Sequence record: MZ681930.1
Source: Enterobacteria phage phiC600P9
DNA: 64,000 nt
Strand: one strand, 5' to 3'
Shown: piece after piece, positions 3,546-62,554 of the stretch
Position numbering within the stretch: the stretch's first letter is position 1
Layout of the letters: every line of letters begins with the position of its first letter
Program-made: the position numbers and the translations under genes
The notes under the pieces: generated by a model
Told to the model about the DNA's origin: nothing
Database searches by the model: none
What the model saw: the letters and a program-made list of their open reading frames with translations, nothing else

Positions 3546-4549
3546 TAACTTACCAATTCAATCCAAGCCGGACGAAGTACATCTTGTACCATTTTAACTA
3601 ATTCCTTTTTAATCAAAGAAGGATTATCCGCTTGAGTTAAAGTAATACCTTCACGAGAAGTTTCTTCCAAAATATCTTGAACAGTTAGTCCCATCACCTT
3701 TCCAAAATCCTTTGGACCAATTTCGCCAATTTTAGAAATAACGTTATTTACTCGGTTCAGTGTAACGTAGCAAGCTAAAATTCCCAGCAATTTATTATCA
3801 GCTTCTGACAGCTCAACTTTAGCTTTAATAGGCTTATCAGACTTTTTCTTTTCGCTAAATTTAGAGTTCTTGCATTTAATAGCTACACGATTGCCATTAG
3901 GCATCCAAGAAGGATAACAAGGTTTCAATACATAACCTTCAGCGGTAAATACTTCGCCTTTTGCTTCGGCATTCCAAACGCATTTATTTGCATCAACTAA
4001 TCCAGCATGGTCTACTGTAAAATTATAATCCTGGACGACAGAATCTAAATCGTTTGGCAATTTAATAAGCTCTTCAAATTTACCGCGACCTAAAAGTGGA
4101 GCCATTTTAAATTTAAATGTATTACAGAATGATTCCATCATATAATCATCGACATAAGTCACATCACCACTTTCGGTAGTAACAATAATGTCAAATACAT
4201 AAAAATCTTTATCGCCATAATCGACATTCTTCTGAATGCCAGGTCCAGCGAATTCGCCAAAGACTTGATAAGATACAACCGCTGAGGTTTCCATAATATC
4301 TTGTACTGCTTTAATGGAATCAGCGTAATTCTTTAGAATAATTTCATACCCAAAGAAATCTTCAGCAGGAAGAATAGGACCAGTACGTTTAGCGCAAGTT
4401 ACTTTATCGCGCTCAATAATCAATGAGAAATTTGTGCCGTGAATCTTTTCACGAGCTACCCACTCCCCACCAGTCAATCCCAAGCTATAAAGTTTTTCAA
4501 TAAATTTAGAGTTGTAATGATTTTCAAGACTGCTATACTTTTTAAACAT
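3545..4549 (-). CDS. rnlB: RNA ligase 2 (Rnl2)
   Basis: 334 aa ORF, N-terminus [19 protein letters not shown] and KIHGTN adenylation motif; T4 Rnl2 length. Confidence 0.93.
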
Positions 4550-4558
4550 AATTAATCC

Positions 4559-4837
4559 TCAAAATGTAATTTCTAACCAATCACCATCACGCTGATCACT
4601 ATTGACTTTAAAGCTGAATCCTTCTTTTCTCAGCCAATCACCAATTTCTTCAGTAATCAATTTATCACGAGCAATACAATAATAATTAAAATGTGTTTTA
4701 CCTTGTTCAGCTGCTTTATTAGCAAGTTCCGAAAAATCTTTAATAAAACACTCTAGTTTAAACTGTTTACTTTTAAGTGCTTTTTCGCGTAATTGACTAG
4801 CAAAAGATTCATTTTCATAAAGATCATACTGTTCCAT
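4559..4837 (-). CDS. Hypothetical protein (T4 24.2 position)
   Basis: 92 aa ORF in operon with rnlB; synteny only. Confidence 0.6.
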   Translation of the reverse strand: MEQYDLYENESFASQLREKALKSKQFKLECFIKDFSELANKAAEQGKTHFNYYCIARDKLITEEIGDWLRKEGFSFKVNSDQRDGDWLEITF

Positions 4838-5039
4838 TTTTCACCTTCTTATTAATATGTCTTTTTCTATAGACAACTTTTTCTCGAGTCTCAAATTTAT
4901 TCTTAGCAGTCATAGCTCGAGCCCATAATACAGCCACTTCTTTCGCCTGTAAGTTCAATTCACGAGCAATTTCAATGAATGACTTTCCAGACTCATGGAG
5001 TGTAAACACCACAACCTCAGTTCTCATAATCAATCTCAT
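4824..5039 (-). CDS. Small protein with HTH-like segment (T4 24.3 position)
   Basis: 71 aa ORF; segment SFIEIARELNLQAKEVAVLWARA resembles a sigma-region-4/LuxR-type helix-turn-helix. Confidence 0.5.
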   Translation of the reverse strand: MRLIMRTEVVVFTLHESGKSFIEIARELNLQAKEVAVLWARAMTAKNKFETREKVVYRKRHINKKVKNGTV

Positions 5040-5108
5040 GTTATCGAGTTGGTGCCATTATATACATCGTTTTCCGATTGTGTTTTGTGTGCTTTCAAAA
5101 TGAAGAAA

Positions 5109-5122
5109 GGGGCCGAAGCCCC
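5109..5122 (-). terminator. GGGGC-UUCG-GCCCC hairpin between hoc and 24.3
   Basis: Perfect GC hairpin; on the minus strand it is followed by a T-rich run. Confidence 0.6.
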
Positions 5123-5127
5123 TGAGA

Positions 5128-6258
5128 TTATGGATAGGTATAGATGATACCAGTTTCTAAAGCAGTTTTATGAATGATGTATCCATTACGTGATTCTTGA
5201 ACATCAACTTCTGGATAGTCTTTCATCATCTTCTGAAGAGTGTAACGATGCAAGTAGTATTTACTATCTGGATCTTCAGTTTTCCAATCTTTACCTTCTT
5301 CAGTCATTTTTTGGATTTCATCCATAACCCACCAACCGCACCAGATATAAGCTGAAGTACGATGTGGAAGAGGATGAACATAAGGTAATTCACCTTCTGG
5401 TTCCGGAGCAACTTTATCAGTTACCTGAACTTGACCTTCTGCTGTGATAGTTTTGCTATCATAGTCAGTTGCTGTAACGACAGCAGTAACTTCAATAGTT
5501 TGACTTCCAATAGATGATGTATCAACGGTGTATACATTAGTTGACCCTTCTACAGGAGAAGAATCTTTCTTCCATGAATACGTAATTTGCGCTTCTTCCG
5601 GGGCATCAGTGACATTAGCAGTAAATGTAGCCGAAGCATCTTGCTGAACATTAATAGAAGGAGGAGTCAATGTAACTTGTGGATTCATTGTCTTCTTATT
5701 AACAGTCAGTGATACTTCATTAGAAGTAACTTCCTTTGCATCATAATCTGTCGCTGTTACTTGGGCTACGCATTTAATTCTTTTTACTCCACTTGTAGTT
5801 GGAGTATAGCTAAATGTAGCGGAAGTTGCTTCACTAACAGGAGAATCATCTACATGCCACTGATACGTAGCAGATGCGCCTGGTGGTTGAGAAGCTAAAG
5901 CAGCAGTAAATTCAACAGGAGTTCCAATCACTCCAGCAGCAGGACTATCAGGAGTTACAGCTAAGGTAGTTGTCTGTGTCTTATTTTGAACTGTGATAGT
6001 TGTACTAATTTCAGCTGTTTCGGGACTACTATCGGCAACTTGATTGGTTGCAACTACTTTAATAGTCTTTTGACCAGCAGGTCCTTTTAGTACATAACTA
6101 AAAGTTGCTTCAGCTCCATCTTGTGGAACATCATCTACAGTCCAAACATATGTAATAGGTCCATCTCCAGTTTGACCACTGGGTGTAGCAGTAAACTGCT
6201 GAGTCTGATCTATAACTCCAGTAGGTGTTTTAGGAGTTATATCAACTGTAAAAGTCAT
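5128..6258 (-). CDS. hoc: Highly immunogenic outer capsid protein Hoc
   Basis: 376 aa ORF with Ig-like repeat architecture and the conserved capsid-binding C-terminus (YVHPLPHR...CGWWVMDEIQK). Confidence 0.93.
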   Translation of the reverse strand: MTFTVDITPKTPTGVIDQTQQFTATPSGQTGDGPITYVWTVDDVPQDGAEATFSYVLKGPAGQKTIKVVATNQVADSSPETAEISTTITVQNKTQTTTLAVTPDSPAAGVIGTPVEFTAALASQPPGASATYQWHVDDSPVSEATSATFSYTPTTSGVKRIKCVAQVTATDYDAKEVTSNEVSLTVNKKTMNPQVTLTPPSINVQQDASATFTANVTDAPEEAQITYSWKKDSSPVEGSTNVYTVDTSSIGSQTIEVTAVVTATDYDSKTITAEGQVQVTDKVAPEPEGELPYVHPLPHRTSAYIWCGWWVMDEIQKMTEEGKDWKTEDPDSKYYLHRYTLQKMMKDYPEVDVQESRNGYIIHKTALETGIIYTYP

Positions 6259-33468: not shown

Positions 33469-35056
<1,588 letters not shown>

Positions 35057-41745: not shown

Positions 41746-41973
41746 TTACTGCTCAATAAATCCTGTGTAAAATTCTACATCTTCAGCATCCATACCGTCA
41801 CAATATTCATTAACCATAAATTGTTTAAGACGATTTAAAGGACCTTCAATAACAACTGAAACATTGCAATTGGGGTCATTTAGTGCGCTTGTAATACGGA
41901 GTTCAGGATAACGATTACGAATAATTTCTTCAATATATTCAAAATCAACAACATCAATATCAATTTTAGCCAT
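41746..41973 (-). CDS. frd.3-like small protein (internal ATG of the extended gene 32 frame)
   Basis: 75 aa from MAKIDIDVV..., preceded by SD AAAGAGGAAAATAAC; in frame with gene 32 because the gene 32 stop is absent. Confidence 0.6.
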
Positions 41974-42924
41974 GTTATTTTCCTCTTTAATCATCATCAG
42001 CAGTATTGCCGATAGTTGTATAGTACCACAGTATGCTTTGAGGTCCGTGTCATCAGCACTAGATGAACTGCCAGAGCTTGAGCTCATAAAATCATCTTCA
42101 GTTTTTGTTTTGAAGTCATCAACATTGAATGCATCCAAATCATCAGCAACTTTATCGGCTTTCTTAGCAGCAGTTGCTGCGGCACCACCCATAGCAGCAG
42201 TTCCCATAACTTGACTGAACTTAGTGCTCAGTTCTTCAAACGATTTGAATTTATCTTTAGAAGTCATTTCAGAAAGGTCAACCATCTGTTCAAACAGTTC
42301 TTTCTGGAAAGATTCATCATCAATGTTTGGAATCGCAGATTGATTCAGGAATTTAGATTCGTCGTAGTTACTAAAACCAGAAACTTGTTTAACTTTCAGT
42401 ACAAAGTTAGCACCTTCCCACGGACAAGTTACATCAACCGGAGTTTCACCCATTTCAACATCAACTGCAATCATTGCATTGATTTTATCCCAGATTTTCT
42501 TACCAAAACGGTATTTAAATACTTTACCTTCATTTTCTGGAGCAGCTGGGTCTTTTACTACAAGAATGTTAGCCCAATAAGAAGTTTTGCGTTTAACAAG
42601 ACTGTACTCTTTATTGTCAGTGTTGTACAAATCATTTTTACTGATATACTGACATACTGGACAAGAATCGTAATCACCGTGGGTAGATGAACAGTTTTCA
42701 ATATACCATTTACCATTTTTCTTGAAACCGTGATTTACAAGAATTGCGAATGGTGCTTGTTCATCATTTTTAGACGGAAGAAAACGAATTACTGCTTGAC
42801 CGTTACCCGCATTGTCGAGTTTCAGTTTCCACTCGCCTTTATCTTCAGAAGAAAAACCACCTTTATTTCCAGCCAGTTTAGCCATTTGTGCAGCGAGTTC
42901 AGCAGTAGATTTACGTTTAAACAT
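41746..42924 (-). CDS. 32: ssDNA-binding protein gp32; ORF reads through into the frd.3-like ORF
   Basis: First ~295 aa recognisable as gp32 ([17 protein letters not shown]...[10 protein letters not shown]); frame then continues [31 protein letters not shown] to the stop at 41746 (392 aa). Confidence 0.8.
41985..42040 (-). promoter_or_regulatory. Promoter-like 36-nt cassette (extended -10 TGGTACTATAC) embedded in the gene 32 3' end
   Basis: AAAGCATACTGTGGTACTATACAACTATCGGCAAT is near-identical to the motA promoter core at 58172-58192; followed by GATGATGATTAA in another frame and the frd.3 SD. Confidence 0.55.
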
Positions 42925-57503: not shown

Positions 57504-58139
57504 TCACAGTTCAGATGCTACAGTAATTACAGCTTCAATGTTTTCTGCTGAGCGTTTAATGTCAAGATACACATTACCATTTTTAGCGATTTTACATGAC
57601 ATTCCGATATCAGTAAATTTCTGAATATGATGTTCCATCATTTTGTATCCAAAAATTCGCATATTTCCATTGTTGTTAATTTCAAAATTACGAATTCCGT
57701 GAGTGCGTTTTTCTAAAATAGCGAGATAGTTACTACGATAAGTTTCAACCTTTTTAAGAACAAATCCATTTTCATCTAAAAGTTTTAACATGAAGTCTTT
57801 ATCTTCTTCCATATCAGAAGTAATCTCGCGAGCTTTACGAGTTGCTCGTTTTTTCAGCAGTTCCGGAGCGTTTTCCTGTGCGTATAAAGTTGCTGCATTT
57901 GAAATAATATCCTGAGCTTCACCAGTAATGATTAATCCATCACCAGATTTCTCCACCAGGCCTTTTTTAATCAATACCCCAATATTACTATTAACTACTG
58001 CATTACCTAAATCTGGATGCACCTCACGAACTTCTGCAGCTGTAATGAAATCTTTCTTAGCAATGGTAATTAAAATCGCAGCAGTTTTTTCATTCAGAAC
58101 ATCGTTAGAAGCTTTGATGATGTAAGTTACTTTAGACAT
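57504..58139 (-). CDS. motA: Middle transcription activator MotA
   Basis: 211 aa ORF, T4 MotA length and sequence character. Confidence 0.92.
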   Translation of the reverse strand: MSKVTYIIKASNDVLNEKTAAILITIAKKDFITAAEVREVHPDLGNAVVNSNIGVLIKKGLVEKSGDGLIITGEAQDIISNAATLYAQENAPELLKKRATRKAREITSDMEEDKDFMLKLLDENGFVLKKVETYRSNYLAILEKRTHGIRNFEINNNGNMRIFGYKMMEHHIQKFTDIGMSCKIAKNGNVYLDIKRSAENIEAVITVASEL

Positions 58140-58161: not shown

Positions 58162-58200
58162 ATCAGTAGTTGATAGTTGTATAGTACCACAGAATGCTTT
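58162..58200 (-). promoter_or_regulatory. Extended -10 early promoter for motA with ATTCTGT/ACAGAAT inverted repeat
   Basis: Minus strand AAAGCATTCTGTGGTACTATACAACTATCAACTACTGATACAGAAT; same 21-nt core as the element inside gene 32. Confidence 0.65.
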
Positions 58201-58201
58201 G

Positions 58202-58219
58202 GAGAGCCGAGGCTCTCCC
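58202..58219 (-). terminator. GGAGAGCC-UCGG-GCUCUCC hairpin
   Basis: Perfect 7-bp GC-rich stem between the small membrane ORF and the motA promoter. Confidence 0.55.
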
Positions 58220-61939: not shown

Positions 61940-61981
61940 CTGATAGTTGTATAGTACCACGGTCCTTGTGGTATGTAAACC
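61940..61981 (-). promoter_or_regulatory. Early promoter (GTTTACAT + TGGTACTATAC extended -10)
   Basis: Minus strand GTTTACATACCACAAGGACCGTGGTACTATACAACTATCAGCTACGGAGGAG. Confidence 0.7.
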
Positions 61982-61996
61982 GTTTTGTGAAAATTT

Positions 61997-62554
61997 TTAA
62001 ATGGAAAGATACCATCCGTTGTAGTTGCTTTTTCTTACAACCTTACGAAGGTCTTCTCTGTCACCGATGAACTTCGGAGTGTACTGGATGACACCTGGAT
62101 GAATTTCTTTAGTGTTGAATATAATTATACAGTCAGCGACTTGATGATTTAGAATGGGCCCTAGATTTATTCCAGAACCATATGGATACTCTCCGCTGCA
62201 TCCGGTTGTTACCGAAATCCAACGTGAGTCAGTTTGATGTGTCTTAACTTCTACACGAAGCCCACAGTATTTTGGATGCGCCAATACATCCCATGCATAT
62301 GTGTACGGATCATCAACATCTTCTTGACCTTTGTTAACATACCCGCTCAGCCAATCTGCTACAAAAAACTCTGCGTACACAGCGATACGGCATCTTTCGA
62401 TAACTTCTGCCTTATCCTGATTCGGATTTTGTTTTAAAGAGTATCTTGCTGTATCAGAAATTTTGACCTTCATTTCACTAGTCAAGTCACTGTTCGATAG
62501 GGTAAATGTCGGAATCTGAAATAGTCTCTGTAAACCCGGATTCGTTTTCTGCAT
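61997..62554 (-). CDS. denB: Endonuclease IV (DenB)
   Basis: 185 aa ORF, T4 DenB size, position between ndd and rIIB. Confidence 0.85.
   Translation of the reverse strand: MQKTNPGLQRLFQIPTFTLSNSDLTSEMKVKISDTARYSLKQNPNQDKAEVIERCRIAVYAEFFVADWLSGYVNKGQEDVDDPYTYAWDVLAHPKYCGLRVEVKTHQTDSRWISVTTGCSGEYPYGSGINLGPILNHQVADCIIIFNTKEIHPGVIQYTPKFIGDREDLRKVVRKSNYNGWYLSI

Follow-up and report, generated by a model that had tools for sequence, protein, structure and literature searches.

The window, a 64,000-nt stretch of the deposited sequence of the Tequatrovirus phiC600P9, carries on its minus strand an open reading frame (ORF) of 392 aa at 41746..42924. In a Pfam search, residues 40 to 240 of its translation matched PF08804 (gp32; E=1.3e-66) and residues 318 to 392 matched PF05798 (Phage_FRD3), with all 75 profile positions covered. 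The preliminary description had noted that gene 32 reads in frame into frd.3, and the deposited sequence indeed places both domains in one polypeptide. T4 gp32 is a 301-aa protein with a disordered acidic C-terminal domain. The ORF shares with it the KRKST motif involved in cooperativity (the N terminus reads MFKRKST), the core and the Dda-binding helix (T4 gp32 residues 248 to 270). However, the ORF lacks the last seven residues of T4 gp32, DDLLNDL, and continues into Frd.3 instead; the gp32 tip motif (D/G)L(D/N)x(L/I)Lxx(L/M) is absent from it.

The features along this ORF, all on the minus strand, were delimited as follows. Codons 1 to 294 of gene 32 and the first base of codon 295 occupy 42042..42924, according to the ORF, the PF08804 match and the alignment to KIT06, T4 and pSs-1. 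The junction codon CTC, which we regard as an excision scar, lies at 42040..42042, and its base 42041 differs from that in another record, MT630408.1 (see below). By comparison with KIT06, 42011..42040 is what remains of the early promoter of frd.3, namely its 3' half, consisting of the spacer CAAAGCATACTGTGG and the start region, with the TG of the extended -10 element at 42027-42028 and the -10 hexamer TACTAT at 42020-42025. The frd.3 5' leader (41974..42010) is identical in canonical phages. It contains the Shine-Dalgarno sequence GAGG (41982-41985) and a TAA (41987-41989) that is out of frame with the fusion and ends gp32 in the records lacking 105 nt described below. The frd.3 coding sequence (41746..41973; PF05798) has its own ribosome-binding site and ATG, and it is a separate gene of 75 aa in T4 and KIT06. 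When the junction was read by eye for programmed frameshift or bypass signals, neither an X XXY YYZ heptamer nor matched take-off and landing codons were found.

A single-sequence AlphaFold model of the 75-aa Frd.3 showed a beta-alpha-beta-beta-alpha arrangement with a disordered acidic tail (pLDDT 74.5). A weak sequence match to a BolA family protein was obtained (E=0.12), and a Foldseek search of the PDB gave no fold relatives below E=0.01. A metagenome contig in the ENA (ERZ27280761 k141_90854, 4288-5257) carries two Phage_FRD3 genes, of 82 and 75 aa, flanking frd.2; there, this variable region has undergone a natural duplication or insertion.

Exact copies of the 21-mer CTGTGGTACTATACAACTATC lie at 42011-42031 and at 58172-58192, and a copy with one mismatch lies at 61942-61962; no occurrence is expected by chance. 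The tail of gene 32 and the motA promoter therefore do share an extended -10 core, as had been proposed from the sequence. The out-of-frame string ACT GCT GAT GAT GAT TAA was likewise found where it had been reported after the 36-nt promoter-like segment, at 41987-42004. It had been taken for the remnant of an acidic C terminus, a reading that we abandon: the string belongs to the ordinary leader of frd.3 and reads the same in phages whose gene 32 is normal.

Next, a 601-nt query spanning the gene 32/frd.3 junction was searched for, and it matched 550 phage records. In most of these, the query aligned as two pieces, about 106 bp further apart than in the window, and the bases missing from the window are present in about 98% of the related T4-like (Tequatrovirus) genomes. 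Alignment to KIT06, T4 and pSs-1, in which gene 32 ends in ...DTDL DDLLNDL followed by a stop, showed that the absent 106 bp comprise the last seven codons (DDLLNDL) and TAA of gene 32, the terminator GGGGACCCTAGAGGTCCCC-T6, an AT-rich block and the -35 element TTTACA. A promoter and terminator scan of KIT06 recovered TTTACA-17-TACTAT, the upstream TG and the terminator, and the same scan of the window found neither the terminator nor the TTTACA-17-TACTAT promoter at gene 32/frd.3. The gene 32 terminator itself exists in two reverse-complement forms, GGGGACCCTAGAGGTCCCC and GGGGACCTCTAGGGTCCCC, and the hairpin is flipped between otherwise similar phages (Kelasse, JLBYU22, L037 and L038 versus T4 and KIT06), metagenome contigs from the ENA included.

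The 36-nt "cassette" of the preliminary description is thus, judging from these alignments, the spacer, the extended -10 element and the start region of the normal frd.3 early promoter. It was correctly recognized as promoter sequence but was not built into the last codons of gene 32: half of an intergenic promoter is butted onto a truncated gene 32, with nothing inserted in the gene. In T4, the frd.3 RNA is an abundant NAD-capped primary transcript. Terminator/early-promoter cassettes of this kind are known in T4-like phages as PeSLs (Arbiol et al. 2010; Comeau et al. 2014, PMC4122927), and the canonical relatives carry the stem-loop, the AT-rich block, TTTACW-N17-TAYWAT, the Shine-Dalgarno sequence and the ATG before both frd.3 and motA. 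At 42011-42040, only the spacer, the TG and TACTAT remain, whereas KIT06 and T4 have all the elements. Degraded "half" PeSLs have been described near natural indels (PMC4122927), but in the window the extent of the halving is set by how far the similarity to a vector sequence reaches (see below) and not by a recombination signature.

The lost tip of gp32 is deeply conserved. The motif (D/G)L(D/N)x(L/I)Lxx(L/M) was found in 102 of 115 cluster representatives of 280 to 320 aa, down to about 59% identity, and its carriers include T4-like phages of Escherichia, Enterobacter, Serratia, Acinetobacter and Proteus. We attribute its absence from the ORF in the window to excision. In a 2024 study of the interaction between Dda and gp32, the first peptide screen excluded gp32 residues 281 to 301.

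The gap was not confined to the window. Tequatrovirus genomes with a gap at gene 32 came from at least 12 phages, isolated by many laboratories in many countries. The same 392-aa ORF, with 106 nt gone, was found in MT630408.1 (phiC600P9), vB_Eco-B1.1, GEP001 and CrRp10. Five phages (TB004, Sfk20, SP21535, EO1 and 11B_SA_NWU) lack 105 nt, and their gp32 stops at the TAA inside the frd.3 ribosome-binding site. The one-base relation between the two frames that had been noted earlier is therefore arithmetically correct, since gp32 ends at the leader TAA in records without 105 rather than 106 nt. Other junctions were found in IME537 (a 402-aa fusion), ZCEC15 (a 277-aa gp32, with the left end of the gap 120 nt further upstream) and ZN18 (301 aa, ending in LFQKIFS, with the junction GGACC/TATTCC, where the slash marks the join). 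In TB004, the junction at gene 32 retains one A more than in the fusion records, and gp32 ends in ...NTADD and a stop.

The 105-nt gap was observed in one register in three promoter-spacer backgrounds, and every one of these spacers also occurs in canonical phages. Single-nucleotide polymorphisms and indels were found within 50 to 100 nt of identical junctions, and the right flanks, 71 to 98% identical, clustered with canonical phages instead. Since the haplotypes differ so close to identical junctions, the junctions do not come from common descent. An ordinary lineage variant was one outcome foreseen in the preliminary description; the same ORF does recur in other records, but the differing haplotypes beside the identical junctions rule out a variant shared by descent.

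The window comes from a second GenBank record of phiC600P9, and its fusion protein, QYW08368.1, has the counterpart QNI20321.1 in the first record, MT630408.1. Over the 64,000 nt, the two records differ at a single position, 42041, which is the junction base. On the plus strand, it is A in the window and G in MT630408.1, so that the junction codon specifies Leu in the window and Pro in the other record. On the minus strand, the T of the window is the next canonical base of the left flank, and the C of MT630408.1 is the last canonical base of the right flank. The join therefore lies between 42041 and 42040 in the window and between 42042 and 42041 in MT630408.1. This difference fits a shift of +1 in the removed interval between the two phiC600P9 submissions.

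A second region with missing bases was found upstream of motA (ATG at 58139, minus strand). Compared with T2, SH7 and RB68, the window lacks 42 nt there, comprising a T-run, an AT-rich block and the -35 element. As a result, at 58181..58219 (minus strand; T2 alignment), the hairpin GGGAGAGCCTCGGCTCT(CC) is joined straight to CCAAAGCATTCTGTGG-TACTAT, with the join at about 58203/58202. We conclude that 58181..58219 is a second scar of the same artefact and that motA only appears to lack a -35 element and a terminator. A junction-specific search recovered the motA scar from nine phages only, each of which has a gap at gene 32 too. IME537 has a variant form of the scar, and EO1 and 11B have kept the motA segment. 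TB004 has one extra A at the motA scar as well as at gene 32; therefore, the extra A reflects a coordinate offset and not a mutation. At motA, the +1 shift between the two phiC600P9 records leaves no trace, since the two bases concerned are both C.

A relative of the promoter cassette is intact in the window. It lies at 61942..62010 (minus strand) before an 87-aa ORF, consists of AAAAATTTTCACAAAACGGTTTACA, a 17-nt spacer and TACTAT, and has not been removed. In a complete relative, the 30-mer core of the cassette occurs in exactly two copies. Two further extended -10 sites on the minus strand, at 34625 and 10317, have the MotA-box-like sequences TGATGCTTCCA and TAATGCTTCAC at about -30 and, from the sequence, look like middle rather than early promoters.

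The T4 region was then compared with plasmids. A 117-nt segment 100% identical to T4 (AF158101, 146,857-146,973) was found twice per record in three plasmids, pCoo, AJ297913.2 and NZ_CP017779.1. Its left end, TGGATGACC, coincides with the first base missing in the window, 8 codons before the gene 32 stop, and its right end, AAGCTT, is the HindIII site in the spacer of the T4 frd.3 promoter, just past the end of the gap. In pCoo, the two copies form inverted repeats around aph(3')-IIIa, and each is bordered by HindIII, the stop linker TGATTGATTGA and BamHI; the cassette was therefore engineered. We take it to have the layout of the Omega interposon, with terminators from T4 gene 32. The Omega interposon, part of many cloning vectors, was reportedly constructed by Prentki and Krisch in 1984, with terminator fragments of T4 gene 32 placed as an inverted repeat on either side of a resistance gene. 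No statement on the origin of the Omega terminator was found in the open-access literature searched. The 117-nt fragment thus begins exactly where the gap in the window starts. The window itself does not carry this element; what it lacks are the homologous, genuine bases of the phage, which gave rise to the vector part and did not receive it.

In PLSDB, about 111 nt of an Omega arm are called by RGI as a "qacE efflux pump" (pCoo NC_007635.1, 1014-1124; AJ297913.2). In pCoo, the last bases of the terminator fragment from T4 gene 32 (912-1028) fall within this span, and the prediction in both plasmids looks like a false positive for a resistance gene.

Canonical loci were aligned to the 117-nt fragment by blastn with the scoring of NCBI VecScreen (reward 1, penalty -5, gap costs 3 and 3). 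For an internal match, VecScreen rates scores of at least 30 as strong and scores of 23 to 24 as weak. For KIT06 (OQ349392), which has an a-type spacer, the predicted match was 106 nt long with a score of 100; its removal leaves GGACC/CCAAAGC, the junction observed in MT630408.1, EcoB1.1, GEP001 and CrRp10. For c-type and d-type spacers, 105 nt were predicted, and the junctions GGACC/TACAAC.. and GGACC/TCCCTG.. were both predicted and observed, the former in Sfk20 and the latter in 11B, SP21535 and EO1. The difference between 105 and 106 nt arises because the T4 spacer begins with A, as the a-type spacer does. At the motA locus of T2, the predicted match was 42 nt long with a score of 36, leaving GGCTCT/CCAAAGC, which is the motA junction of the window. 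The motA locus gave no match to the fragment in EO1 and a score of 23 in 11B, and both phages keep the segment.

The missing segment is therefore the maximal alignment of the canonical locus to a vector-borne sequence under VecScreen scoring. Within the same record, copies above the threshold are missing and copies below it are kept. Record-specific offsets are common to both scars, both in TB004 and between the window and MT630408.1. Altogether, bases are missing, a vector-borne fragment matches them, and the predicted and observed end points agree at two loci in many records. The prediction was matched exactly in 9 of the 12 gapped genomes. ZN18, IME537 and ZCEC15 are probable cases; their junctions are not reproduced base for base by the simple model.

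The fusion was also looked for in independent assemblies. When 11 variant proteins were looked up by exact sequence, seven were in the collection, both phiC600P9 versions among them, and all seven came only from NCBI submissions. Canonical gp32 sequences were also found in Logan, ENA and JGI assemblies. The 10 junction-spanning contigs from ENA and Logan that were inspected were all canonical, a number that is too small on its own to exclude a real allele at 2%. No scarred junction was seen in IMG/VR and JGI contigs, where the denominators were only one and three canonical loci. In the literature searched, no published description of a gp32-Frd.3 fusion or of vector trimming in T4-like phages was found.

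We consider it very probable that the gp32::Frd.3 ORF is a curation artefact and not biology. The 117-nt piece of T4 would have been built into the Omega interposon decades ago as a transcription terminator. Because this element of cloning vectors derives from T4, a screen for vector contamination would flag the homologous stretch of any T4-like genome. The flagged span would then have been cut from the phiC600P9 record and the ends joined, and likewise a second copy of the cassette, upstream of motA, that matches less well. The agent may have been a search of the NCBI VecScreen/UniVec type or a trimming step that drew on the same library; that a vector screen acted at all, and who applied it, we infer. 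Such a history belongs to the general class of false-positive contamination trimming, in which an internal span matching a library is removed, the flanks are joined and chimeric ORFs result. Once 106 nt are gone, gene 32 reads into frd.3 by way of the frd.3 leader, which contains no stop in that frame. The true phiC600P9 locus would hold DDLLNDL-TAA, GGGGACCCTAGAGGTCCCC-T6 and GGTTTACA. Gene 32 of phiC600P9 almost certainly ends in ...DTDLDDLLNDL-TAA, followed by the intrinsic terminator, a complete early promoter and frd.3.

Could a minority of Tequatrovirus phages really have lost the gp32 tip, the terminator and the -35 element, perhaps at a hotspot, and make a gp32-Frd.3 fusion or a new gp32 tail? 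The records come from 12 phages of many laboratories and countries, all viable isolates; in T4, deletions at short homologies can arise repeatedly (PMC8262927), and since phage single-stranded DNA-binding proteins can trigger defence systems, escape could have been selected. The end points, however, are the alignment limits to the vector-borne T4 fragment, down to the dependence of 105 or 106 nt on the first spacer base. The second locus is hit in the same records and only where the score passes the vector-screen threshold, and the off-by-one offsets of individual records recur at both loci. Neither microhomology in the junction alignments nor a structure juxtaposing the ends was found, and DNA folding of the locus gave no support for hairpin-mediated slippage. 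Such a deletion would also discard a deeply conserved motif, and its sole support comes from GenBank submissions. A real fusion protein, as envisaged in the preliminary description, is thus unsupported, the independent assemblies inspected being all canonical, and we regard a real deletion as very improbable. It is equally improbable that the 106 bp and 42 bp are truly absent from phiC600P9 and about 10 other isolates, which would then replicate using a gp32 deprived of the conserved tip and fused to Frd.3, with the limits of the Omega fragment a coincidence or the sign of some other biological link. A natural deletion hotspot, considered in view of the three spacer backgrounds, the fixed right end and the recurring GGACC left end, leaves the end points unaccounted for. 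Selection for immune escape, whether it acted on the tip of gp32 or on a target present in two copies, found no more than context in the literature and was superseded by the vector result.

The terminator-promoter cassette might instead have broken short-k assemblies, its two copies leaving contigs that were joined without the repeat. The 30-mer core does occur exactly twice in a complete relative, six of the Logan contigs inspected (k=31) end inside the cassette, and one Logan contig starts at CAAAGCATACTG, at the same base as the right flank in the window. The left-hand Logan contigs, however, stop within the cassette and not at GGACC in gene 32, their overlap being the usual k-1, and an A/T spacer mismatch in phiC600P9 shifts the k-mer boundary elsewhere. 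Repeat boundaries explain neither the 105/106 rule nor the score-dependent retention of the motA segment, and we consider a mis-join of this kind very unlikely. The remaining proposal, that a one-base error or indel on top of a true 105-nt deletion moved gp32 out of the ...NTADDD-TAA frame, can draw on TB004, which has one extra A relative to the fusion records. That A recurs at the motA scar, however; the 106-nt version is common to four unrelated genomes; and the artefact accounts for the 105-nt state as well, so that this proposal is scarcely tenable. The earlier suspicion that an indel had removed the stop was right in blaming an error and not biology, but a 106-bp block is gone and no homopolymer in an A-run is involved. 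A reference-guided consensus that inherited a deletion was rejected because there are too many junction types.

Three of the 12 gapped genomes are in RefSeq, namely CrRp10 (NC_054899.1), IME537 (NC_054921.1) and ZN18 (NC_054945.1), and excised versions therefore serve as references. A UniRef entry (n=38) also names the CrRp10 fusion protein as its representative (RepID). In the canonical phages Kelasse (MW749001; 1272-1628 of the locus) and JLBYU22 (OK272484; 1377-1628), Frd.3 is annotated as a "putative ssDNA binding protein". The gp32 coding sequence of EcNP1 (MK886800; 344-1384 of the locus) is annotated as a two-piece join skipping 105 nt, in a sequence that is canonical and has its own stop. 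The false fusion and the 311-aa proteins are the probable source from which these Frd.3 names and the EcNP1 model spread.

With the trimming of genuine phage sequence as the preferred explanation, the databases hold false gp32 variants of 277, 301, 310-311, 392 and 402 aa, and regulatory elements have been lost from the records. Database studies of C-terminal variation in gp32, of T4 early promoters and of gene fusions would be misled by them. For the biology of the phage, the finding means nothing new: phiC600P9 almost certainly has an ordinary gene 32, an ordinary terminator and ordinary frd.3 and motA promoters.
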